Part shown: piece after piece, positions 34,940 to 47,513 of the stretch
How positions within the stretch are numbered: position 1 is the first letter of the stretch
How the letters are laid out: the number at the start of each line of letters is the position of its first letter
NCBI GenBank assembly: GCA_046595815.1
Contig: JBKJSN010000019.1
Coordinates: 4,936-68,935 of the forward strand
Source: Mycobacteriales bacterium
GTDB lineage: Bacteria > Actinomycetota > Actinomycetes > Mycobacteriales > SCTD01
Direction: 5' to 3'
Length of the DNA: 64,000 nucleotides
Translations under genes and position numbers: made by a program
Notes under the pieces: model-generated
The model's database searches: none
What the model was told of the DNA's origin: nothing
Seen by the model: only the letters and a program-made list of their open reading frames with translations

Positions 34940-35635
34940 TCAGGAGACGGTGAAGGTGCCCTTCATGCCCTTGTCGGCGTGCCCGTCGACGGTGCAGGAG
35001 AACGTGTAGGTGCCGGCCGTGGCCAGCTCGATGATGGCCTCGCCCTCCTTGCCGGGGGCGACATCGTGGACCTCACCGACCTCCTTGCCGGCGGCATCGA
35101 CGATGACGAGGTTGTGGGGCGCCTGGCCGTTGTTGTGCAGCTTGAACTCGATCTTCTCGCCCGCCTTGGCGGTGAAGCCGGACATACCCGCGAAGGCGAA
35201 GTCGGTCGTCGTGACCTCGAGCTCGCGGTCGTACGCAGCCTCGCTCGTGCCGGCCTTGCCGGTCACGGTGATCTCGGTGCGGATGCCGTCGCCCTTCTGC
35301 CCGGGCTTGCAGGCGACTTCGTACTCGCCCCCGTCCAGCGAGACGTGCAAGTCCCGGCTCGTGCCCGGCGCGATGTTCTCGACCTCGCCGACGACGGTCG
35401 CGAAGGCGCCGCCGCTGTCCTTGCCGTAGACGTAGACCTCGGTCACGTCCTTGCCCGTGTTCGCGACCTCGAGCTCCACATCGCCCGCCGTGAACGTGGT
35501 CTGAGTCAGGCCGCAGGTCGTGTCGTTCGCCACCACCTTCGCGCGCTGCAGGGTGGAGTTGGTGGTGTCGTCCTTGGCGCAGCCGGCGAGCGGCAGCAGC
35601 AGGGCGAGGGCAACGGCGGCGGAGGAAGAGCGCAT
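34940..35635 (-). CDS. Lipoprotein with two cupredoxin-like domains (EfeO N-terminal-like plus type-1-copper-like)
   Basis: Lipobox LAGC; GEVENIAPG and YEVACKPG; then HN...CTVDGHADKGM. Confidence 0.8.
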   Translation of the reverse strand: MRSSSAAVALALLLPLAGCAKDDTTNSTLQRAKVVANDTTCGLTQTTFTAGDVELEVANTGKDVTEVYVYGKDSGGAFATVVGEVENIAPGTSRDLHVSLDGGEYEVACKPGQKGDGIRTEITVTGKAGTSEAAYDRELEVTTTDFAFAGMSGFTAKAGEKIEFKLHNNGQAPHNLVIVDAAGKEVGEVHDVAPGKEGEAIIELATAGTYTFSCTVDGHADKGMKGTFTVS

Positions 35636-35678
35636 GGAGACAACAAGCCTTTCGAGGTGGGAGAGGTGCGGCGGGAAG

Positions 35679-36527
35679 TCAGGCAGCGATGGGCTGCTGC
35701 GGTGCGGGGGTGCCGCTCGCGGGGGTCTTCGCGGGGCGGAGGAACAGGTAGAGCACAGGCACGAGGTAGGCGAGCCAGACCATGACCTGGAGCACTGTCG
35801 GGTTGGGCTGGAAGTTGAAGATGCCCTTGAGGAGCGTGCCGTACCAGGAGGACGGCGGGATGGTGCTGCTGATGTCGAAGGCGCGGTCGTTCAGACCGGG
35901 TAGGTCTCCGGCCTCCTGCAGGTCGTGCACGCCGTAAGCCGCGACGCCGGCGGCCACCACGACGAGCGCAGCGCCGGTCCAGGCGAAGAACGTCTTGAGG
36001 TTGAGGGTGATGGCGCCCTTATAGAACGCCCAGCCCAAGACCACCGAGGTGAACAGGCCGAGGAAGGCGCTGCTGGTGGACACGACGGGATCGGAGCTGG
36101 ACTGGACGGCTGTCCACAGGAACAGCGCTGTCTCCAGACCCTCGCGTCCCACGGCGACGAAGCCGGTGAGGGCTAGGGCGATGGGGCCCAGTGCGAGGGC
36201 TGCGTCGAGCTTGCCGTGAAGCTCGGTCTTGAGGAACCGCGCTGTGCGGCGCATCCAGAAGACCATCCAGGTCACGAAGCCGACGGCGATGAGGGAGGCG
36301 TACCCGCCGAACCGTTCCTGTGCCTCAAAGCTCATGCTCGCGCTCGTGTACTGCAGGACGGCCCCGAAGGCCAGGCTCAGGGCGACGGCTGCAACCACGC
36401 CCGACCAGAGCGGGGCGAGCCTGTCCCGACGTCCGGTCTTGACGAGGTAGGCCACGAGGATGCCGACGACGAGGGACGCCTCAAGGCCTTCGCGCAGGCC
36501 GATCAGGTACGTGGGGAGCGAGAACAC
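35679..36527 (-). CDS. efeU: FTR1/EfeU iron permease
   Basis: Two REGLE motifs, MVFWM, HDLQEAG. Confidence 0.92.
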   Translation of the reverse strand: MFSLPTYLIGLREGLEASLVVGILVAYLVKTGRRDRLAPLWSGVVAAVALSLAFGAVLQYTSASMSFEAQERFGGYASLIAVGFVTWMVFWMRRTARFLKTELHGKLDAALALGPIALALTGFVAVGREGLETALFLWTAVQSSSDPVVSTSSAFLGLFTSVVLGWAFYKGAITLNLKTFFAWTGAALVVVAAGVAAYGVHDLQEAGDLPGLNDRAFDISSTIPPSSWYGTLLKGIFNFQPNPTVLQVMVWLAYLVPVLYLFLRPAKTPASGTPAPQQPIAA

Positions 36528-36611: not shown

Positions 36612-37055
36612 TCACGCTCTGAGCACGAGATGACCCGCGCGCACCTCGACCTGCTCGAAACCCAGCCGGTGAAGCAGGCGCAGTGACGCCTCGTTGCCGG
36701 GCAGCACCTCTGCCCGGACACTGCTCGCGCCTTGCTTTCGAACCCACTCGAGCAGCGCCCGGACGGCGGCGGTGCCCACGCCTTGCCCGCGGACGGAGCG
36801 TGCCAGGCCGTACCCGATCTCGACCTCGCCATCGTCCCCAGGCGGGCCGAACCAGCCGCAGTCGCCGACCACCACCCCCTCGAGGAGGACCAGGAAGGTC
36901 CCTGGACCGGTGTGCTCGGGGTGCTCAGCCAGTGGACGCAAAGCGTCGGCGGTGTCCGGATGCGGCCAGTCAGGGGCGTGTCTGATCTCGCCCAGGTCCG
37001 TCCCCTCCAGCACAGCCCTTGCCACGGCCACGGTGCAGGGGAGGAGTTCGATCAC
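36612..37055 (-). CDS. GNAT (RimJ/RimL-like) acetyltransferase
   Basis: EIGYG, RGQGVG, NEASLRLLHRLGF; GTGA overlap with the RNase D stop. Confidence 0.85.
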   Translation of the reverse strand: MIELLPCTVAVARAVLEGTDLGEIRHAPDWPHPDTADALRPLAEHPEHTGPGTFLVLLEGVVVGDCGWFGPPGDDGEVEIGYGLARSVRGQGVGTAAVRALLEWVRKQGASSVRAEVLPGNEASLRLLHRLGFEQVEVRAGHLVLRA

Positions 37056-38266
37056 GGTTCGGGAAGCGCCTGCGCGAGTGCGGCAGCGGTGAGCGTGACC
37101 TGCCACGAGCGGGCGCCATGGCCCGACAGGGTCTGGGCGACGACGGTTTCGCTGAGCTCGCTCGGTGGCGTCCAGGCGAGGCGGCGTACGGCGTCCGGCG
37201 CGATGAGGTTCTCTGCCGGGATCCGGTGGTGCTCAGAGAGCGCTGCGAGGGCCGCGCGGACTCGGACGAGCCGCCGTGCAGCGATCGGGTCGCGCTCAGC
37301 CCATCTGCTCGGCGGGGGTGGTCCGTCGCCCGGGGGTGAGGCGAGGGGCAGATCCTCTTCCGGAAGGGTCGCCGCGCGCTGCAGGGCACCCCACCAGAGG
37401 TCCACATGGCGCCGCGTGGAACGGCCCCCGAAGACGGGGAGCGCCAGCAGTTCGGCGGGCGTCGCAGGGGCGGTGCTCACCGCACTCACGATGGCGGCGT
37501 CGGGCAGCACCCTGCCTGGCGCGGTGTCGCGCTTGCGGGCGAGCACGTCGCGAGCGGACCACATCTCGCGTACGGCGGCCAGCTGCCGCCTGCTCCGAAG
37601 CTTGTGGATCCCGCTGGTACGCCGCCAGGGGTCGACGCGCGGGCCCGGCGCCGGAGCGGTGCGAACCGCTTCGAACTCCTCTTCGGCCCAGGCCAGTTTG
37701 CCTTGCGCGGCGAGCTCGTCCTCCAGGGCGTCCCGGAGCTCGAGCAGCACCTCGACGTCGAGGGCGGCGTAGACCAGCCAGTCATGGGGGAGTGGACGGG
37801 TGGACCAGTCCGCCGCGCTGTGCCCCTTCTCGAGGGCATAGCCCAGGACGTTGTCGACCATGGCGCCGAGGCCCACGCGGTCGAAGCCGGCCAGTCGACC
37901 CGCGAGCTCGGTGTCGAACAGAACCGGAGCGGTCATGCCGACCTCGGCCAAGCAGGGGATGTCCTGGTTGGCTGCGTGCAGCACCCAGGGGGCGTCCTGC
38001 AGGACCTTGCTGAGCAAAGACAGGTCGGGGCAGGCGATCGGGTCGATCAGCGCCGTACCGGAGTTCTTCCTGCGCAGCTGCACGAGATAGGCGCGCTGGG
38101 AGTAGCGGTAGCCAGAGGCGCGCTCGGCGTCCACGGCCAAAGGTCCCGTGCCCGCGGCGAAGCGCGCGATGACTGACGCGAGCTGAGCGGACGTCTCGGT
38201 GACAGGCGGGACACCTTCGCGGGGGGCCAGCAGTGGCGTCACGGGACGCTCGGCGACCTCCTCCAC
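37052..38266 (-). CDS. rnd: Ribonuclease D (HRDC domain)
   Basis: AVDAERASGYRY, LHAANQD, FDTELA, SAADWS, YAALDVE. Confidence 0.92.
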   Translation of the reverse strand: MEEVAERPVTPLLAPREGVPPVTETSAQLASVIARFAAGTGPLAVDAERASGYRYSQRAYLVQLRRKNSGTALIDPIACPDLSLLSKVLQDAPWVLHAANQDIPCLAEVGMTAPVLFDTELAGRLAGFDRVGLGAMVDNVLGYALEKGHSAADWSTRPLPHDWLVYAALDVEVLLELRDALEDELAAQGKLAWAEEEFEAVRTAPAPGPRVDPWRRTSGIHKLRSRRQLAAVREMWSARDVLARKRDTAPGRVLPDAAIVSAVSTAPATPAELLALPVFGGRSTRRHVDLWWGALQRAATLPEEDLPLASPPGDGPPPPSRWAERDPIAARRLVRVRAALAALSEHHRIPAENLIAPDAVRRLAWTPPSELSETVVAQTLSGHGARSWQVTLTAAALAQALPEP

Positions 38267-38289: not shown

Positions 38290-38994
38290 TCAGCGGATGA
38301 CCCCGGCACGCATGGCCAGGGCGACCATCTCGGCGCGGTCGCCTGTGCCGAGCTTGCGCGCGATCCGGGCAAGGTGCGACTTAACGGTCAAAGCGGACAG
38401 GCCGAGCTCATCGCCGATCTGCTTGTTGCTCTGCCCATCGGCCACCAGACGCAGGACCTCGACCTCGCGGCCGGACAGTTCCGACACGCCGGTCTCGACC
38501 GGACCGCCGCGCAGTCCGGCAGCCAAGAGCGAGGCGACGGACGGGTCGGCGTAGACGCCACCGTCGAGCACCCGGCGTACGCCGTCCGCGACGACGACAG
38601 GGGAAGCGGACTTGAGCAGGTAGCCCTGCGCGCCGGCGACGAACGCCGCGCGGACGGAGTAAGGGTCGTCCGCTGCAGAGAGCACGACGAGGCGCTGCCA
38701 TCCGGCGGCGCGCAGGTCAGCAAGCAGATCCAGGCCGGAACCGTCGGGGAGTCCGAGGTCCAGGACACACAGCTCGCGGGGGCCGGAGACGTTGGCGCGG
38801 GCCCGGGCCTCACCGATGGTGGCTGCCTCGACGACCTCGCGGGCGCCCATCATCTTGAGCCTGTTGACCATCGACTCCCGCACGAGCGGGTGGTCGTCGA
38901 CGACCATGGCGGAGAAGCCAGGGGTCTCCCCTGACGTCTGCGCCGGGATGCTCTCCAGCGCGCTTTCGAGACCGGCAGCCACCGCGTCCTCCAC
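38290..38994 (-). CDS. NarL/LuxR-family response regulator
   Basis: VVDDHP, VLDLGLPDG (phosphoacceptor Asp), GYLLK, LSGREVEVL...SNKQI...TVKSHL HTH. Start uncertain. Confidence 0.92.
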   Translation of the reverse strand: MEDAVAAGLESALESIPAQTSGETPGFSAMVVDDHPLVRESMVNRLKMMGAREVVEAATIGEARARANVSGPRELCVLDLGLPDGSGLDLLADLRAAGWQRLVVLSAADDPYSVRAAFVAGAQGYLLKSASPVVVADGVRRVLDGGVYADPSVASLLAAGLRGGPVETGVSELSGREVEVLRLVADGQSNKQIGDELGLSALTVKSHLARIARKLGTGDRAEMVALAMRAGVIR

Positions 38995-39186
38995 CTACTG
39001 CGTGCGGCCCAGGAGAGGGCCGTTCCTGTGATCCATCGGCCGGATTGAAGGGTTCCTGTAGCACGGGTTGGTCCGACTGGCCCAACGAGTGTTGTTAGGC
39101 CGTTCGGCTGACAAGCCCCGTGATCACTGCAGTTGGGCGCCGAATCTGCCGAGAGATGCACGTAACCCCTGATCAGGAGGCCCCCC

Positions 39187-40668
39187 TTGACCCGTCCGGC
39201 CGCTATCCGACGCAGCTCGGTGACCGTTGCCCTGGCTGCCCTTGCGGTGGCCGGCACCCCCGTGGTGACAGCGCTCCCGGTCCTGCAGGCGGTGGTGTCC
39301 TTCCACGGTCCGGCCGTGATGGCGCCCGGGGTGGAGGTGGTTTCGACGCTGGCCGGCCTGGACGTGCAGGTCGTCCGAGGCGACGCGCCGTCGCTGTACC
39401 GCCTGGCCCACGCACGCGGCGTACGCGGGCTTGCCCTTGACGTCGCCGTGGAGCTGACCAGCGGCAGTGACACTGACAGTGACAGTGACAGCAGCGACAA
39501 GGTCACCGCGGTCCGAGCCAGCGATGGACTTGCGAGTCCGGCGGGCGACCCCGGCGCCGGCGCCGGGGTACGCGTGGCGGTCATCGACACCGGTGTCTCC
39601 GACACGGCGGCTCTCAACCGCGCCTCCGGGCGCCTCGTTGATGCAGTGGACACCTCGACTGGAGCGGTGCGCACCGGCGGCAGGTACGACGACGGGTACG
39701 GCCACGGAACCTTCATGGCCAATCTGGTCGCGGGTGGGGAGTTGCCGGGCAGCCAGGGGGCGATCGGCATCGCCCCCGGCGCCACTGTGTTGGTCGTGCG
39801 CGTTGCAGAGGCGGATGGCTCAACGAGCCTGGTGCGAGTGCTGGCTGCTCTCGACTGGCTGAAGGGGCATGCGGCGGAGGTCGATGTCGCCAACTTGTCA
39901 CTGTCGGCGCGGCGACCCTTCAAGGTGTACGGCGCCGACCCTCTCACCGATGCTGTCGAGGCCGTTCGGGACGCTGGCGTCAGCGTGGTGGTCTCGGCCG
40001 GCAACAAGCGCAACCAGCTCGGTGACCCAGGATTCGACCCGAAGGTGATCACGGTCGGCGCCGCCGACCTGGACCGAAGCCGGGTCCGCGTGGCCACGTT
40101 CTCCGGCAGCGGCACGGTGGCTGGTGTCGCCAAGCCTGATGTCGTCGCCAACGGCGTGCACGTGCTCGGTCTGCTCCCGGAGGACTCCGTCCTGGCGCAG
40201 AGCGCAGGCACGGTGCGCCTGGACAACGGAATGTTCCGGGGGACGGGGACCAGCCAGTCGGCCGCCGTCACCTCCGGACTGGCCGCGCTCCTGCTCAACG
40301 CTCACCCAAGCGCGACCCCTGCCCAGGTGAAGGCATCGCTGCGTTGCGCGGCTACGGATCTGCGTGGTGAGCGTGACGGCGCGGGTCTGGTCCGCACCAC
40401 CTCGACGCTGTGCGCCGGTCCTGACGGGCAGGCGCTGGACGGCAGTGGGGACCTGACGGGTGAGGCCGACTTCGATGCTTCCTCGTGGGGTGCCTCTTCG
40501 TGGGGCGCGTCTTCGTGGGGTGCCTCGTCGTGGGGTGCCTCGTCGTGGGGCGCGTCTTCGTGGGGCGCGTCTTCGTGGGGTGCCTCGTCCTGGGGGGCTT
40601 CTTCTTGGGCTGCCTCCTCGTGGGCTGGCTCGGCGTGGGGCCTCGCAGACCCGGGAGTCGCCCCGTGA
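39187..40668 (+). CDS. Secreted S8 (subtilisin-like) serine peptidase with C-terminal (ASSWG)n tail
   Basis: AGGAGG SD then TTG; signal peptide; VAVIDTG, GHGTFMA, SAGN, KPDVVA, GTSQS; 11 pentapeptide repeats. Confidence 0.92.
   Translation: MTRPAAIRRSSVTVALAALAVAGTPVVTALPVLQAVVSFHGPAVMAPGVEVVSTLAGLDVQVVRGDAPSLYRLAHARGVRGLALDVAVELTSGSDTDSDSDSSDKVTAVRASDGLASPAGDPGAGAGVRVAVIDTGVSDTAALNRASGRLVDAVDTSTGAVRTGGRYDDGYGHGTFMANLVAGGELPGSQGAIGIAPGATVLVVRVAEADGSTSLVRVLAALDWLKGHAAEVDVANLSLSARRPFKVYGADPLTDAVEAVRDAGVSVVVSAGNKRNQLGDPGFDPKVITVGAADLDRSRVRVATFSGSGTVAGVAKPDVVANGVHVLGLLPEDSVLAQSAGTVRLDNGMFRGTGTSQSAAVTSGLAALLLNAHPSATPAQVKASLRCAATDLRGERDGAGLVRTTSTLCAGPDGQALDGSGDLTGEADFDASSWGASSWGASSWGASSWGASSWGASSWGASSWGASSWGASSWAASSWAGSAWGLADPGVAP
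40477..40641 (+). repeat. 11 x 15-nt coding tandem repeat (8x ASSWG, 2x ASSWA, 1x GSAWG)
   Basis: Read directly; units differ mainly at synonymous positions. Confidence 0.97.
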
Positions 40669-42065
40669 GCCCCACGCGGCGGGTGCGCTCCGTCGCCCTC
40701 GTCGCTGCCGTCCTCACCGCTGCTGCGGTGGTAGGTGACAGCTGGGGGAACTCGCCCTGGTGGGCCATCCCGGCCCTCGCAGTCGCGGTGGCGCTGTCCG
40801 AGATCGCGGTCGTCAGCCTGCAGTTCGGCCGTCAGACCTGGGCCTTCTCCCTCACCGAGAGCGTCCTTGGCGCCGCCTGGGTCATGCACACGGGGGCCTG
40901 GTCGGTCTTCGGCGTGGCGATCGGCGTACTCGTGGCGCAGGTTGCTCTCAAGCGACCCCTCATCAAAAAGCAGTTCAACATCGCGATGTTCTCCTGCGCG
41001 ACGGCTCTCGGGTCCGTCGTAGCGGGGCTGACCGGCGGTCACACGGCTGGCGCCATCGCGGGCCTTGCGGTGTTCTTCCTGGTCAACCACACGCTGGTCG
41101 CGATGGCGGTCGCCGCAACGAGTCGACGACCACTTGTTCCGTTGCTGGTGAACTCCATGCCGCTGTCCGCCGTGCACATGGCGGGGAACAGCTCCATCGG
41201 CTTGCTGGCGGCCTTCCTCGCTGGTGCGGCGCCCTTCGGGCTCTTGGGCCTGCTTGTCCCGCTGGCGCTGCTGTGGTCCTCCTATGACCAGCAGACCCGG
41301 CGCAGCCAGGAGGCACGGCTGTTCGCGGAACTGGCCGCCGGCCAGGAGCGGGCGGCGGGGCGCTCGAGCGACGTGTCTGCCAAGGTGATCGTGACCGCCG
41401 CTGCCCGACTGTTCGGGGGAGCGGACGTCGAGATGGTCCTGCTCGCAGCTGACGGACCCGTTCGGTACGCCGGTGACGAGCTCACCGTGCCGCAGCGGCT
41501 GCGCGTGGATGCCGAGGTGTTCGACGAGCCCTGGGTGATGCGTGCTCTGGGCGAGCGAGGGGTAGCCACAGGCGTCGAGCACGGGCGCCCCTGGTGCTCG
41601 GCCCTGCTGGGTGACCCTGCGCAGCCGCAGGCCGTCCTCATCGCCCGTCGGCCGCTCGGATCGGCACCGTTCGGACGACGCGAGGTCCGCCTGGCAGAGG
41701 TGCTGGTGGGGCAAGCCGACTCCTGGCTGTCCGTCGCAGACCTGTCCGACCGTGCGCGTGAGGCGCAAAAGCACGTCGAGGTGGCCGAAGGCGCGGCGCG
41801 CGCTCTCGGTGACCTGGGTGCCGCCACGGCGCCCGCACTGCTCGTGCTGCGCGAGTCCGCTGACCGTCTCGCGCGGCTGGCGGAGAACGACGGCAGGGTG
41901 GACGACATCATCGATGAGCTCCAGCTGGTCGAGCGTGCTGTCGCCTCGCTGCTCGGGGCCGTTGCGCTTGCTGCTGACCCGGACCTGCTCGCCGCTGATG
42001 ACGGGAGGGCACCGCTGGCCGTGCGCCCCTCGACCGACTGGACCACGACCGGCGTCCTGCGATGA
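40665..42065 (+). CDS. Multi-pass membrane sensor-like protein (MASE-like N-terminus, GAF-like region, helical C-terminus without catalytic domain)
   Basis: GTGA overlap with the peptidase stop; about 7-8 hydrophobic segments with KQFNIA and FFLVNHTLV; FGRREVRLAEVLVGQA resembles a GAF C-terminal helix. Confidence 0.7.
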   Translation: MSPTRRVRSVALVAAVLTAAAVVGDSWGNSPWWAIPALAVAVALSEIAVVSLQFGRQTWAFSLTESVLGAAWVMHTGAWSVFGVAIGVLVAQVALKRPLIKKQFNIAMFSCATALGSVVAGLTGGHTAGAIAGLAVFFLVNHTLVAMAVAATSRRPLVPLLVNSMPLSAVHMAGNSSIGLLAAFLAGAAPFGLLGLLVPLALLWSSYDQQTRRSQEARLFAELAAGQERAAGRSSDVSAKVIVTAAARLFGGADVEMVLLAADGPVRYAGDELTVPQRLRVDAEVFDEPWVMRALGERGVATGVEHGRPWCSALLGDPAQPQAVLIARRPLGSAPFGRREVRLAEVLVGQADSWLSVADLSDRAREAQKHVEVAEGAARALGDLGAATAPALLVLRESADRLARLAENDGRVDDIIDELQLVERAVASLLGAVALAADPDLLAADDGRAPLAVRPSTDWTTTGVLR

Positions 42066-43186
42066 GGATCCGGTCCCGCGCCGGCATGCCGCTGGCCGTC
42101 TGGGCAGCGCTGCTCGGCGGCGGGGCCGTCTTCGTCGTGGTCGGCGTGGCCGGCGTGGTCGTGAGGACAAACACCGCGGCCATGCCCTGGGACGCCCTAG
42201 TTGCGGGCGCGGCTGCTGGCCTCGTCGTCGTCGCCGCCGCTGTGGTGGCAGCGGGCCGGCTTGCCGCGACGCTACGTGGCCTTCACGAGGACGCAGCACG
42301 GCGCCTCGCCGAGCCCGGTCTGCCTGTCAGCAGTACCCGACGCGTCATCACCGCCTCGAGCGTCGAGGTTGGCGAGTTGGCCCGGACACTGGACGCGCTG
42401 CACCTTCGCGTACGCATGGCTGATCAACTCGGTGAGCGTCACCGACGGGAGGCGGAGACTGCAGGCGCCGGAGTCTTTGAACTGCTCTCCGGCCTCGTGG
42501 CGGCAGAGGAAGGGGCGCGAGGCCAGCTCGCCGCTGAGCTCCACGACACGGTCGCCCAGTCACTGATGATCGCTCGAGGTCTGCTCGCTGCCGGACCCAC
42601 GTCGCCGCAGGACCTCGCCAAGCTCTCGGACTACGTCGAGGACGCAGAGGAGCAGGTTCGCGCGGTCATGGCCCGTACCCGCCCGCCGGCTCTCCGCGAT
42701 GGCGACCTTGCATCGGCAGTTGGTGCCTTGCGGTTGGACATGGGCGCGCGTTACGGCCTGCACGTCGATCTGGCGTGGCCCGACTCGCCGTACCCGCTTC
42801 CGCTTGCCAGCGCGATCACGGTGTACAGGTTCTTCCAGGAGGCCCTGCTCAACGTCGTCAAGCATGCCGACGTCGACGACGCTGTGGTGTCGTTGGAGGT
42901 GGACGAGAGCGCTGTGGTCGCCATCGTGCGGGACGAAGGCCCCGGGTTCGACCCGGACGCGGTCCGTCCCGACCGTGGCCGGCACGTGGGACTGGGGCTG
43001 CTCCGCGAGCGCGCCCGGCTCTCCGGCGGGTCGTTGGAGGTCGAGAGCCTGCGTGGTCACGGAACGACCCTGACCCTGCGGCTGCCGCGCCCCTCCGTGG
43101 CTGTGCCGGACAACATCCCCGTCCCCGAGAACATCGACGACGAGCTCGGGCTGCGCCGCCGGCTGACGGATCGCGCCGTCGGCTAA
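42062..43186 (+). CDS. HisKA_3 (NarX/DesK-type) sensor histidine kinase
   Basis: ATGA overlap; two TMs; H-box ELHDTVAQSL; N-box QEALLNVVKHA; DEGPGF; GLGL; GTT. Confidence 0.92.
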   Translation: MRIRSRAGMPLAVWAALLGGGAVFVVVGVAGVVVRTNTAAMPWDALVAGAAAGLVVVAAAVVAAGRLAATLRGLHEDAARRLAEPGLPVSSTRRVITASSVEVGELARTLDALHLRVRMADQLGERHRREAETAGAGVFELLSGLVAAEEGARGQLAAELHDTVAQSLMIARGLLAAGPTSPQDLAKLSDYVEDAEEQVRAVMARTRPPALRDGDLASAVGALRLDMGARYGLHVDLAWPDSPYPLPLASAITVYRFFQEALLNVVKHADVDDAVVSLEVDESAVVAIVRDEGPGFDPDAVRPDRGRHVGLGLLRERARLSGGSLEVESLRGHGTTLTLRLPRPSVAVPDNIPVPENIDDELGLRRRLTDRAVG

Positions 43187-43193
43187 CGGTGGG

Positions 43194-43787
43194 CTATGGC
43201 CGAGTGCGCAACGGGGTGATGCCGACCGGCGGCAGTCCCGCGGTCAGGCACAGCAGGTCGCACCAGGCCCGCAGGTGTACGGCGAGGTCCAGCGAGCCGT
43301 TGTCGGCGTGCAACGGGCTCCAGGAGGCGCGCAGCTCGACCTCGTTGGTCTCCTGAGGGTCATCCACGAGCCCGAAGGTCAGCGAGGCCGTCCGGGTCAC
43401 CGTGCCGCCCGCGGCGGTGTGCTGCGCACCCCGCTCGCGTAGCGCCTCCGTAAGCCAGCTCCAGCCGACCTCTGCCAGAGCCGGGTCGCGCGCCATCTCG
43501 GGGTCGACGTCCGCGCTGACGAAGGCAACGACTCGCGTGTCGCCGCGCCAGCCCGGCTGGCCGGCCGGATCGTGAAGCACCACGAAGCGGCCCGTCGCGA
43601 CGTCATCGCCGTCCACGAGCACCTCTGCGCTGTAGGCCGCGGAGTAAGGCGCCAGCCGGCGCGGCGCAGGTACCTCGTGCAGCGTCAACGTGCCGGGGCG
43701 CTGGGCGTCTGACAGCGCGGCCTGCAGCCCGGTCAGTGCCTGTGCGAACACGCTCGGAGGTCCTGCGGGTTCGAGCGGTGCGGTCAC
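43194..43787 (-). CDS. DUF3000-family protein
   Basis: PAPRRLAP, GRFVVLHDP, VGWSWL, GTVTR, ELRASW, GLPP. Confidence 0.88.
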   Translation of the reverse strand: MTAPLEPAGPPSVFAQALTGLQAALSDAQRPGTLTLHEVPAPRRLAPYSAAYSAEVLVDGDDVATGRFVVLHDPAGQPGWRGDTRVVAFVSADVDPEMARDPALAEVGWSWLTEALRERGAQHTAAGGTVTRTASLTFGLVDDPQETNEVELRASWSPLHADNGSLDLAVHLRAWCDLLCLTAGLPPVGITPLRTRP

Positions 43788-45974: not shown

Positions 45975-47513
45975 TCAGATGTCGCGGAAGGGCTCGATCT
46001 GGGCGCCGAGGCTGGACAGGCGTGCCGCCAGGTCCTCATAGCCGCGGTCGATGACGTAGACGTTGCGCAGCACGCTGGTGCCCTTGGCCGCGAGCATGGC
46101 GAGCAGGATCACGACGGCCGGTCGCAGCGCCGGGGGGCACATGACCTCGGCCGCGGACCAGTGGGTCGGGCCGTCGATCCAGATGCGGTGCGGGTCGAGC
46201 AGCGTCACACGGCCGCCGAGCCGGTTGAGTTCGGTGAGGTAGATCGCCCGGTTCTCATAGACCCAGTCGTGGATGAGCGTTCGGCCGTGCGCCGAGGCCG
46301 CGATGACGGCGAAGAACGGCACGTTGTCGATGTTCAGGCCGGGGAACGGCATCGGGTGGATCTTGTCGAGCGGCGCCCGGAGCTGGGACGGGGTGGTGGT
46401 GACGTCGACGAGTCGGGTCCGACCGTTCTCCGCGGGGTACTCCTGCGACAGCTGCATGTGGCAGCCCATTTCTTCGAGGACCGCGAGCTCGACCTCGAGG
46501 AATTCGATGGGTACCCGCCGTACCTCGATCTGGGAGCCCGTCACGATGGCTGCAGTCAGCAGCGACATCGCCTCGATCGGGTCCTCGGAGGGGGCGTACT
46601 CGACATCGACATCGATCTGGGACCGGCCGTGCACCGTCAGGGTCGTGGTGCCGACGCCGTCGACCTGCACCCCGAGCAGATCGAGGTAGAAGCACAGGTC
46701 CTGGACCATGTAGTTGCTGCTCGCGTTGCGGATGACCGTGACCTGGTCGAGCCGGGCCGCGGCCATGAGGGCGTTCTCGGTCACGGTGTCGCCGCGCTCG
46801 GTGAGCACGATCGGCCGCGTGGGGAACTGGCCGACGTCGCGGGTCACGTTGTAGGAGCCCTCGGTCGCCACCACCTTCACGCCGAACGGCCGCAGCGCGG
46901 ACTTGTGCGGCTCGACGGTGCGGGTGCCGAGGTCGCAGCCCCCGGCGTACGGCAGCTGGAAGTCGTGCTCGCGGTGCAGCAAGGGGCCGAGCAGCAGCAG
47001 GACAGAGCGGGTACGGCGAGCGGCCGTCGCGTCGAGGCTGTCCAGCGCCAGCTGGGCCGGGGGCTGGAGCGTCAGGTCGTCGCCGCTCCAGGACGCCTCG
47101 ACGCCGATGCTGCGCAGCACCTCCAGGATCCGGTTGACCTCCTCGATCCGGGCCACGCCCCGAAGGGTGGTGCGGCCGGCGTTCAGCAGGGAGGCACACA
47201 GCAGCGCGACAGCGGCGTTCTTGCTGCTCTTGACCTCGATGGAGCCGGATAGGCGCTGCCCGCCGACGACGCGAAGATGAGTGGGGCCTGAGTGTCCGAG
47301 TTGCACTAGACCAGCGTCGAGGGCGGTACCTATGCGCGCCAGGATCTCCAGGGAGACGTTCTGCTTGCCCTGCTCGATGCGGGCCACTGCGCTCTGGCTC
47401 GTGGCAAGCGCGTCGGCCAGCTGCGACTGGGTCCAGCCTCGGTGCTTGCGCGCGTCGCGCACGAGGGCGCCGATCTGCTGCAGGTAGTCGTACTGCGGGT
47501 CTGACTCAGTCAT
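45975..47513 (-). CDS. XRE-family HTH fused to MurA-like enolpyruvyl transferase
   Basis: RGWTQSQLA...SQSAVARIEQG HTH, then SKNAAV, GGCDLGTR, TENALMAA, PFPG, YENR, LR, IDRGYE. Confidence 0.88.
   Translation of the reverse strand: MTESDPQYDYLQQIGALVRDARKHRGWTQSQLADALATSQSAVARIEQGKQNVSLEILARIGTALDAGLVQLGHSGPTHLRVVGGQRLSGSIEVKSSKNAAVALLCASLLNAGRTTLRGVARIEEVNRILEVLRSIGVEASWSGDDLTLQPPAQLALDSLDATAARRTRSVLLLLGPLLHREHDFQLPYAGGCDLGTRTVEPHKSALRPFGVKVVATEGSYNVTRDVGQFPTRPIVLTERGDTVTENALMAAARLDQVTVIRNASSNYMVQDLCFYLDLLGVQVDGVGTTTLTVHGRSQIDVDVEYAPSEDPIEAMSLLTAAIVTGSQIEVRRVPIEFLEVELAVLEEMGCHMQLSQEYPAENGRTRLVDVTTTPSQLRAPLDKIHPMPFPGLNIDNVPFFAVIAASAHGRTLIHDWVYENRAIYLTELNRLGGRVTLLDPHRIWIDGPTHWSAAEVMCPPALRPAVVILLAMLAAKGTSVLRNVYVIDRGYEDLAARLSSLGAQIEPFRDI

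Follow-up and report, generated by a model that had tools for sequence, protein, structure and literature searches.

The window analysed here is a stretch of 64,000 nucleotides (nt) from a Mycobacteriales bacterium (contig JBKJSN010000019.1 of assembly GCA_046595815.1), and this report concerns a locus at positions 38290-43186, where a secreted S8 serine peptidase with a C-terminal array of Trp-centred pentapeptides is encoded directly ahead of a 466-residue membrane protein, the putative sensor, and a histidine kinase, and divergently from a response regulator. The pairing of such a protease with a sensor of this kind recurs across several bacterial phyla, and may represent an undescribed peptide signalling system. 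The secreted Trp-centred motif is the element that stays beside the sensor with or without the protease. The chances appear about even that the locus belongs to a recurring type of extracytoplasmic signalling module, in which a secreted polypeptide with short Trp-centred motifs would be encoded directly upstream of a MASE9-like/GAF membrane sensor.

An earlier, sequence-only reading of the stretch had proposed to test whether repeat-tailed S8 genes are consistently followed by the same membrane domain with variable outputs. This is what was found, the outputs comprising separate and fused kinases, PP2C, GGDEF-EAL and HD-GYP domains. In the genome to which the window belongs (89% complete), all four S8 homologues found carry tails with Trp at a period of five residues, and each of the four genes is followed, after a gap of approximately 30 nt or less or with an overlap, by a sensor gene whose product shares this membrane domain and also has a GAF domain. 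The repeat units differ among the four pairs (ASSWG, GQSWY, ARQWS and an SRSWS-like unit), and their outputs are as follows:

Window pair (ASSWG tail): separate kinase
Pair L023: sensor with PAS and SpoIIE-type PP2C output
Pair L024: sensor with PAS, HisKA and HATPase output
Pair L026: sensor with GGDEF and EAL output

Among 41 related genomes, a match to the profile of the membrane domain lies directly downstream and on the same strand for 78 of the 96 S8 matches listed (S8 counted at E ≤ 1e-20; matches from two genomes flagged as unpublished, G023 and G030, are included). Five of the 18 misses were read: one has the domain, and the other four are cut off where their contig ends, in three cases within the repeat. 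To judge from their coordinates, several more of the misses are no further than a few hundred bases from the end of a contig. At least five Trp-Trp spacings of five residues were present in 23 of the 24 S8 genes read, the remaining gene being cut by a contig end, and in the loci examined the order is always S8 and then sensor, with tiny gaps.

A wider scan, with one genome per species and eight TGG codons at 15-nt spacing as the pattern, extended the pairing to distant lineages. Among the 80 loci listed, at least 16 are S8 genes with Trp tails, and these fall in Actinomycetota (including Acidimicrobiia and Micromonosporaceae), Chloroflexota, Dormiibacterota and Saccharimonadales. One of them (L098) ends at the repeat, which leaves 15 assessable; a signalling protein is encoded directly downstream in 12 of these 15, with the present membrane domain in 10 and another membrane or kinase signalling protein in its place in two. 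The outputs at the distant loci are GAF-PAS-HisKA-HATPase, GAF-HisKA-HATPase, GAF-GGDEF-EAL and GAF-GGDEF, and in the Saccharimonadales locus a MASE9 plus HD-GYP protein follows the Trp-tailed S8. The DNA pattern was rejected as a sole marker of the system, since the other 64 listed loci are off-frame or unrelated repeats and a reversed-pattern control also matches some genomes. The same control applies to a seven-TGG match seen in 120 of 401 evenly sampled genomes of the phylum, a tally that includes eight unpublished genomes, has no reading-frame filter and is concentrated in a few families (21/21, 21/26 and 13/21).

Loci without the protease provide the strongest evidence on the motif. Six families of the order share the block of rnd and the response regulator, followed divergently by the sensor, the kinase, DUF3000 and hemE, with the regulator 78-97% identical in the orthologous loci; an S8 gene at the rnd/DUF3000 locus is found only in the family of the window. 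In the S8-less families, a gap of 460-690 nt holds a small same-strand open reading frame (ORF) with a signal-peptide-like start and Trp motifs. A small signal-peptide ORF directly precedes the sensor gene in each of the 13 orthologous loci without S8 that were read (families f13, f4, f9, f11 and f16), and a second locus sample, centred on another family, confirmed the small Trp-motif ORF. In four measured cases the end of this ORF lies between 1 nt inside and 109 nt upstream of the sensor start. By chance, and under formal criteria, such an ORF ends 0-250 nt upstream of 58 of 1209 long ORFs in the window genome. The small ORFs carry one to three motifs (DGSSWS, DGLTWT, DITWT, DTVTWG, DSTTWS, GGMTWLG, SGAWE), a single one in L219-L223 and L225; outside the motifs the mature part shows no conservation, and a Pfam search gave no match for the small peptides. 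Among 20 S8-less paralogous sensor loci, five have a small Trp-motif ORF, and at L209 the corresponding product is a 111-residue protein consisting of a signal peptide and approximately 13 NEASW units, with no protease domain. The proposal of the sequence-only reading that the sensor perceives the Trp motif gained independent support from the small secreted Trp-motif gene in the S8 position.

The sequence-only reading had further suggested a conserved actinobacterial block of rnd, regulator, DUF3000 and hemE in which the regulator has no adjacent kinase. Of five members of the order that lack the module, only one has such a kinase-less NarL-type regulator; rnd adjoins DUF3000 with no regulator between them in three, and an unrelated stretch separates the two in one. 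These arrangements indicate that the whole unit of response regulator and divergent peptide-or-S8, sensor and kinase genes behaves as a cassette between rnd and DUF3000.

Some individual loci deserve separate mention. In the two species of the window's genus without S8 at the hemE locus, a second, paralogous locus elsewhere (L025, G020:C11; L031, G016:C13) has a response regulator divergent from an S8 gene with an SSTSW tail, a sensor and a kinase; the L031 sensor reads as two frames, and a frameshift is possible. At L113 (Acidimicrobiaceae), two tandem S8 genes with GATWS-type tails are present, and no sensor gene was seen downstream of them.

The locus, the protease and its tryptophan-repeat tail

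The gene order, as given by the ORFs and Pfam, is rnd, response regulator, S8, 466-residue membrane protein, histidine kinase, DUF3000, EamA transporter and hemE, with the following features:

37052-38266, minus strand: rnd
38290-38994, minus strand: NarL/LuxR-type response regulator with receiver and GerE helix-turn-helix domains (Pfam Response_reg 58 bits, GerE 68 bits)
38995-39186: divergent intergenic region of 192 nt between the response regulator and S8 genes, presumably a shared promoter/operator
39187-40668, plus strand: secreted S8 serine peptidase, 493 residues (Pfam PF00082)
40477-40641, plus strand: Trp-pentapeptide array of eight ASSWG, two ASSWA and one GSAWG (Tandem Repeats Finder (TRF), unit table)
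40665-41360, plus strand: membrane sensor domain, residues 1-232 of the 466-residue protein (AlphaFold2 (AF2) model, structural match, hhalign)
41361-41675, plus strand: cytoplasmic GAF-fold domain, residues 233-337 of the same protein (structural matches)
41676-42065, plus strand: C-terminal helical region, residues 338-443, and low-confidence end of the same protein (AF2, family consensus)
42062-43186, plus strand: HisKA_3 histidine kinase, 374 residues (Pfam HisKA_3, HATPase_c)
43194-43787, minus strand: DUF3000 gene

This anatomy agrees with the sequence-only reading, which had described three genes joined by 4-nt overlaps, a secreted S8 peptidase with an intact triad and an 11-unit Trp-pentapeptide tail, and a NarL regulator divergent across a gap of approximately 190 bp. 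The membrane protein has an in-frame GTG start at 40665, within a GTGA overlap with the S8 stop at 40665-40668 that was read in the sequence, and ends at 42065; the ATGA overlap with the kinase at 42062-42065 was derived from the ORF ends. The peptidase with its triad and tail was confirmed by Pfam, alignment and the unit table. An AGGAGG stands 6 nt ahead of the TTG start of S8. A promoter scan of 38800-43400 returned no sigma-70-like site, and terminator-like matches were all within coding sequence; the 192-nt intergenic region holds only short, unconvincing repeats and a palindrome at 39168-39177. A search for RNA runs containing the stretch found none, and parts of it are present in five soil-metagenome DNA runs from two studies.

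The protease scores 139.4 bits against Pfam PF00082 (cut-off 21.8), and is thereby a member of the Peptidase S8 family. Its D134, H173, N273 (the oxyanion Asn) and S356 are invariant across 29 aligned homologues. A signal-peptide-like N-terminus is followed by a propeptide-like domain (residues 33-84), the catalytic domain (residues 125-410) and a disordered C-terminal tail. In the AF2 model the catalytic domain is of high confidence, and the tail (residues 414-493) is devoid of secondary structure, with a predicted local distance difference test score (pLDDT) of approximately 29.

At the DNA level the tail is a 15-nt tandem array of 10.5 copies at 40476-40641 (TRF), encoding 11 Trp residues at period five. 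The eight ASSWG units are encoded by seven different DNA sequences, and pairwise codon differences among the 11 units amount to 110 synonymous versus 38 non-synonymous changes. From this synonymous excess the peptide unit itself appears to be conserved, the array being more than the product of recent slippage. Across the homologues the Trp columns of the tail are invariant or nearly so, and the 29 aligned tails follow the consensus [G/A/S]-[S/R/N/T]-[S/T/A]-W-[S/A/T/Y] with 6 to 24 period-5 Trp residues, the last Trp lying at most two residues from the C-terminus in 19 of 29. The tail is not always terminal: S8 proteins of the SGAWT type (L029, G020:C10; L034, G016:C12) have 50-56 non-repeat residues after the array. 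Contigs G009:C1, G014:C207 and G013:C222 (L041, L042 and L044) end inside Trp-repeat arrays, so that the 15-nt repeats seem to break short-read assemblies; repeat copy numbers in metagenome-assembled genomes, including the 11 of the window, may consequently be underestimated.

Two assignments were considered and rejected. The nearest curated S8 family is that of the mycosins, S8 proteases of type VII secretion (TIGR03921, E 5e-35 over residues 124-410), where the score of 121.2 bits is below the cut-off of 278.75. The C-terminus reads ...GLADPGVAP with no hydrophobic segment, and thus no C-terminal transmembrane anchor, and the neighbours (rnd, response regulator, sensor, kinase, DUF3000) do not form an ESX/type VII neighbourhood. 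Likewise, the tail is not a pentapeptide-repeat beta-helix of the A(D/N)LXX kind: Pfam gave no match on any of the four tails of the genome, the modelled tail is unstructured, and units such as ARQWS would place Arg at the inward small-residue position, according to the rules of that family.

Two neighbouring regions were also noted. A 512-residue fusion of an N-terminal XRE-type helix-turn-helix domain (HTH_31/HTH_3) with a full EPSP-synthase/MurA-like domain, encoded on the minus strand at 45975-47513 and adjoining hemE and hisB, is an unusual regulator-enzyme fusion. On the same strand, at 34940-36527, a cupredoxin-domain lipoprotein-like gene beside an FTR1-family iron permease looks like an ordinary iron-uptake pair.

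The membrane sensor, its kinase and the response regulator

Pfam and NCBIfam at default thresholds assigned no family to the 466-residue protein. It belongs to a small family: a search of 1.84 billion proteins yielded 331 representatives at E ≤ 0.001. The AF2 model (pLDDT 90.5) contains eight membrane helices, a GAF fold, a helical C-terminus (helices at residues 338-383, 389-407 and 412-437) and no enzymatic domain, in line with the earlier description of a multi-pass protein without enzymatic output. In the membrane domain, two short helices (residues 34-47 and 64-74) flank a beta-hairpin (residues 50-61), and the outer loops are short. The low-confidence end of the protein (residues 444-466, 41994-42065) contains a family-conserved WTTTG-x-L, itself a Trp-Thr motif, just before the overlapping kinase start; this motif is presumably on the cytoplasmic side.

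Several comparisons identify the membrane domain, at the level of models and profiles, as a divergent MASE9 relative with a fold like that of S-components from transporters of the energy-coupling factor (ECF) type. The window protein gives 11.2 bits (E 0.36) against Pfam MASE9 (PF20972), short of the gathering score of 24.3, and the Saccharimonadales partner (L095) passes with 45.6 bits. When the profile of the 52-sequence family was compared with this MASE9 protein by hhalign, a probability of 95.8% and an E of 7.9e-9 were obtained over 193 columns, and ESM Atlas neighbours include MASE9-bearing clusters (0.90-0.91). The model shows the MASE9 pattern of eight membrane segments, two of which are short and form a hairpin. 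Furthermore, residues 23-192 superpose on ECF S-components of six specificities over nearly the whole target chains, with Z from 11.6 to 13.7, and thus show their six-helix fold: 4hzu_S aligned with Z 13.7 (158 of 164 residues), 5kbw_A with Z 13.5 (161 of 170), and FolT, BioY, ThiT and RibU with Z 11.6-12.8. A Foldseek search of the PDB picked up the GAF domain only, with no match reaching E ≤ 0.001, and the membrane fold surfaced only in the wider structural comparison. The domain is unlikely to have a transport role, because it is fused to a cytoplasmic GAF. The S-component fold binds small ligands from outside (Partipilo & Slotboom 2024, PMC11109136), and for MASE9 ligand binding within the membrane has been proposed (Galperin & Chou, bioRxiv 10.1101/2021.11.05.467447). 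Pfam gave no 5TMR-LYT match.

At all four canonical Pfam MASE9 loci of the class (L233, L236, L234 and L235), a tiny ORF just upstream ends in or near Trp (...GAGIRW, ...GAGWKW, ...AHWI and ...ANWT), the last two endings being conserved between two species of one genus; this observation was made without a chance control.

The GAF fold is indicated by superposition on 3jab_B (Z 15.1) and 2vks_A (Z 13.9) and by Foldseek GAF matches. The window protein has no Pfam GAF match, and its paralogues match Pfam GAF.

The kinase matches Pfam HisKA_3 with 24.4 bits (cut-off 24) together with HATPase_c. As the sequence-only reading had stated, it has almost no extracellular sensor: two N-terminal hydrophobic, presumably transmembrane, segments are read from the sequence, approximately 10 residues apart, with a minimal outer loop. 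Its best NCBIfam matches (UhpB, MctS and NarQ) are all below cut-off, and a weak match to LiaS was found (E 4e-10). The gene lies directly 3' of the sensor gene in 11 of 11 loci examined. Because of this adjacency, and since paralogues fuse the same sensor to a kinase, we infer that the 466-residue protein controls the adjacent kinase. A HisKA_3 plus HATPase_c kinase gene adjoining one for a receiver plus GerE regulator constitutes, at the level of genes, a two-component pair, and the pairing of kinase and regulator is suggested by the known association of HisKA_3 kinases with NarL-type regulators.

Possible roles of the tryptophan motif

In combination, the persistent adjacency of the motif and the ligand-binding type of membrane fold make the Trp motif the likeliest ligand or docking partner of the sensor; S8 would be its carrier and probably its processing enzyme. 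The reading that we favour, at about even odds, is that the secreted Trp-motif peptides are the ligands of the sensor, with S8 as both their carrier and their processing enzyme. In this scheme S8 would cut its own tail or the tails of neighbouring S8 molecules, freeing peptides, and the motif would bind the membrane domain of the sensor either as released short peptides or still attached to the tail. Ligand occupancy would then pass via the GAF and helical region of the 466-residue protein to the intramembrane-type HisKA_3 kinase, which would phosphorylate the divergently encoded NarL-type regulator, and the latter would act on the shared 192-nt control region. We infer binding, cleavage, the direction of regulation and feedback, and likewise a signal that would be either diffusible (quorum-like) or autocrine. 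The small signal-peptide Trp-motif ORF ahead of the sensor has the arrangement of a pheromone circuit, in which the precursor gene adjoins that of the receptor; in the window, the motif resides on the S8 tail instead.

A broader version of this reading is held only tentatively. According to it, a Trp-peptide system would be widespread, spanning Actinomycetota, Chloroflexota, Dormiibacterota and Saccharimonadales, with the motifs as ligands of receptors of MASE9 type and S-component fold. They would be delivered as small secreted precursors or in up to approximately 24 tandem copies on a self-processing S8. The sequence of the unit (ASSWG, ARQWS, GQSWY, SGAWT and others) would then serve as a specificity code among paralogous pairs in one cell, and the resulting private channels would feed two-component, c-di-GMP or PP2C signalling.

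A number of points weigh against the peptide-ligand reading in either form. The array-specific units could be explained by concerted evolution without any specificity code. The pairing covers only part of the distribution of the membrane domain, as 69 of 150 listed domain matches have no S8 upstream; three of the 15 assessable distant loci (L080, L094 and L113) have no signalling gene downstream, and the related genomes are not independent, so that separate events are fewer than these counts suggest. The criteria for the small ORF were fixed after the first five loci had been seen, and under them a small Trp-motif ORF is missing from 14 of the 20 paralogous loci without S8. In the two species of the window's genus (L019 and L020), both S8 and the small ORF are absent from the sensor-kinase locus. 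For the fold, Z values near 13 can be reached by helical bundles through arrangement alone. A complex prediction of sensor residues 1-235 (52-row alignment) with S8 tail residues 420-493, run without controls, gave a score of 0.00 and counts neither way.

An unlikely alternative retains binding of the motif to the sensor and assigns it another purpose: the Trp tail or small protein would not be released as a signal and would dock the protease, or in S8-less loci a small accessory protein, at the sensor's outer face, and the sensor would report what befalls that partner, such as its proteolysis, displacement or substrate load, as with the accessory proteins of intramembrane-sensing kinases. The stop/start overlaps, which suggest translational coupling and stoichiometric co-production, the length and flexibility of the tail and the proximity to mycosins, which are associated with membrane complexes, are all consistent with such a tether, and the single-motif small ORFs fit docking as well as they fit a signal. 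However, up to 24 tandem copies would be needless for docking one protease to one sensor, and the outer loops available for docking are short, both in the AF2 model and in MASE9 as described. It is quite improbable that S8 instead degrades external proteins or wall peptides, with the sensor detecting the products or some other small molecule and the tail acting only as an anchor at the membrane or cell-wall surface. The strictly conserved active site, the diversity of small nutrients bound by S-component folds and the general preference of Trp for membrane interfaces agree with this, but both the small secreted Trp-motif gene in the slot of S8-less loci and the protease-free NEASW-repeat protein ahead of a sensor are left unexplained.

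Two further explanations dispense with recognition of the motif. The protease could be an output of the two-component system, serving envelope quality control or remodelling, with the pairing reflecting co-regulation only; the intramembrane-sensing type of the kinase with its weak LiaS match would suit an envelope-stress regulon, and protease genes are known beside envelope-stress two-component systems (MprAB-PepD, CssRS-HtrA). This is very improbable, as the same pairing occurs with GGDEF-EAL, PP2C and HD-GYP outputs, which include no transcription factor, and S8 invariably precedes the sensor, across tiny gaps. There is only the slightest chance that the Trp-every-fifth repeats drive oligomerisation or condensate-like clustering of the protease, unrelated to ligand recognition. 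The tail is predicted to be disordered, and the NANOG tryptophan repeat is reported to mediate prion-like assembly (PMC9106587), yet the strict adjacency to one sensor domain and the single-motif small peptides would remain unaccounted for.

Comparison with known systems

In the full-text literature, as searched outside subscription journals and supplements, no description of Trp-repeat-tailed bacterial subtilases or of a MASE9 partner was found, and the sole Trp-pentapeptide repeat that surfaced was that of NANOG. As in the window tail, Trp stands at every fifth residue of a disordered region in NANOG; that protein is a transcription factor of the eukaryotic nucleus, and only the pattern is alike.

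The closest relative of the membrane domain is MASE9 (PF20972; bioRxiv 10.1101/2021.11.05.467447), which likewise has eight membrane helices, two short ones forming a hairpin, and is promiscuously fused to HD-GYP, GGDEF-EAL and kinases, as is the domain family of the window. The MASE9 member L095 itself follows an S8 gene with a Trp tail. Unlike MASE9, the actinobacterial branch to which the window belongs always has a GAF domain, and the window protein stays at 11.2 bits against 24.3. For MASE9 and related membrane sensor domains no ligand is known, and the same source, in the part drawn on, names neither a ligand nor a gene partner; a candidate that is linked genetically opens this question to direct tests with synthetic pentapeptides. 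Sensors of the 5TMR-LYT/LytS-YpdA type resemble the window protein in having an S-component-like membrane fold and a GAF followed by a kinase, and in combining modularly with PAS, GGDEF and EAL (PMC11109136). The window protein differs in its extra short helices and hairpin, and in that the kinase is a separate polypeptide. The known ligands of the 5TMR-LYT/S-component group are small metabolites and not peptides. If true, the S-component link would provide a tangible example of a fold known from transporters serving as the receptor for a peptide.

On the protease side, the mycosins are, like the window S8, actinobacterial extracytoplasmic subtilases that work beside a membrane complex. They have a C-terminal transmembrane anchor, and in the window S8 the Trp-repeat tail occupies that position.

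Among peptide circuits, Agr, Com and Phr similarly place a secreted precursor gene beside that of a receptor or kinase and signal through short peptides; the Phr pentapeptides are matured by subtilisin-type proteases. The receptor domain of the window system is unrelated (MASE9/S-component-like versus AgrC/ComD-type or cytoplasmic RRNPP), and its kinase is of the HisKA_3 type, compared with the HPK10 type of the Agr and Com receptors. Furthermore, the protease itself bears the motif in multiple copies, no gene for export or modification adjoins it, and the outputs of the module include c-di-GMP enzymes and a PP2C phosphatase, unlike those of Agr, Com and Phr. Feeding kinases, c-di-GMP turnover and PP2C, the module could control lifestyle switches in abundant soil bacteria. 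Documentation of extracellular signalling by peptides is scant for Actinomycetota, and none is known from Chloroflexota or Saccharimonadales.

A further analogue is the yeast alpha-factor/Kex2/Ste2 system, where a Trp-containing peptide is present in tandem in a precursor that is processed by an enzyme of the subtilase family and perceived by a multi-pass receptor. The analogy is functional only, the proteins being eukaryotic and unrelated. In the window, precursor and protease are one polypeptide, and there are no dibasic spacers between units. Within peptide-to-membrane-sensor signalling, the proposed module would stand out for its unusual precursor, a protease carrying the presumptive ligand in many copies, for its orphan receptor family and for outputs of several kinds. 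A protease so loaded with its presumptive signal would represent a new route to a peptide signal.

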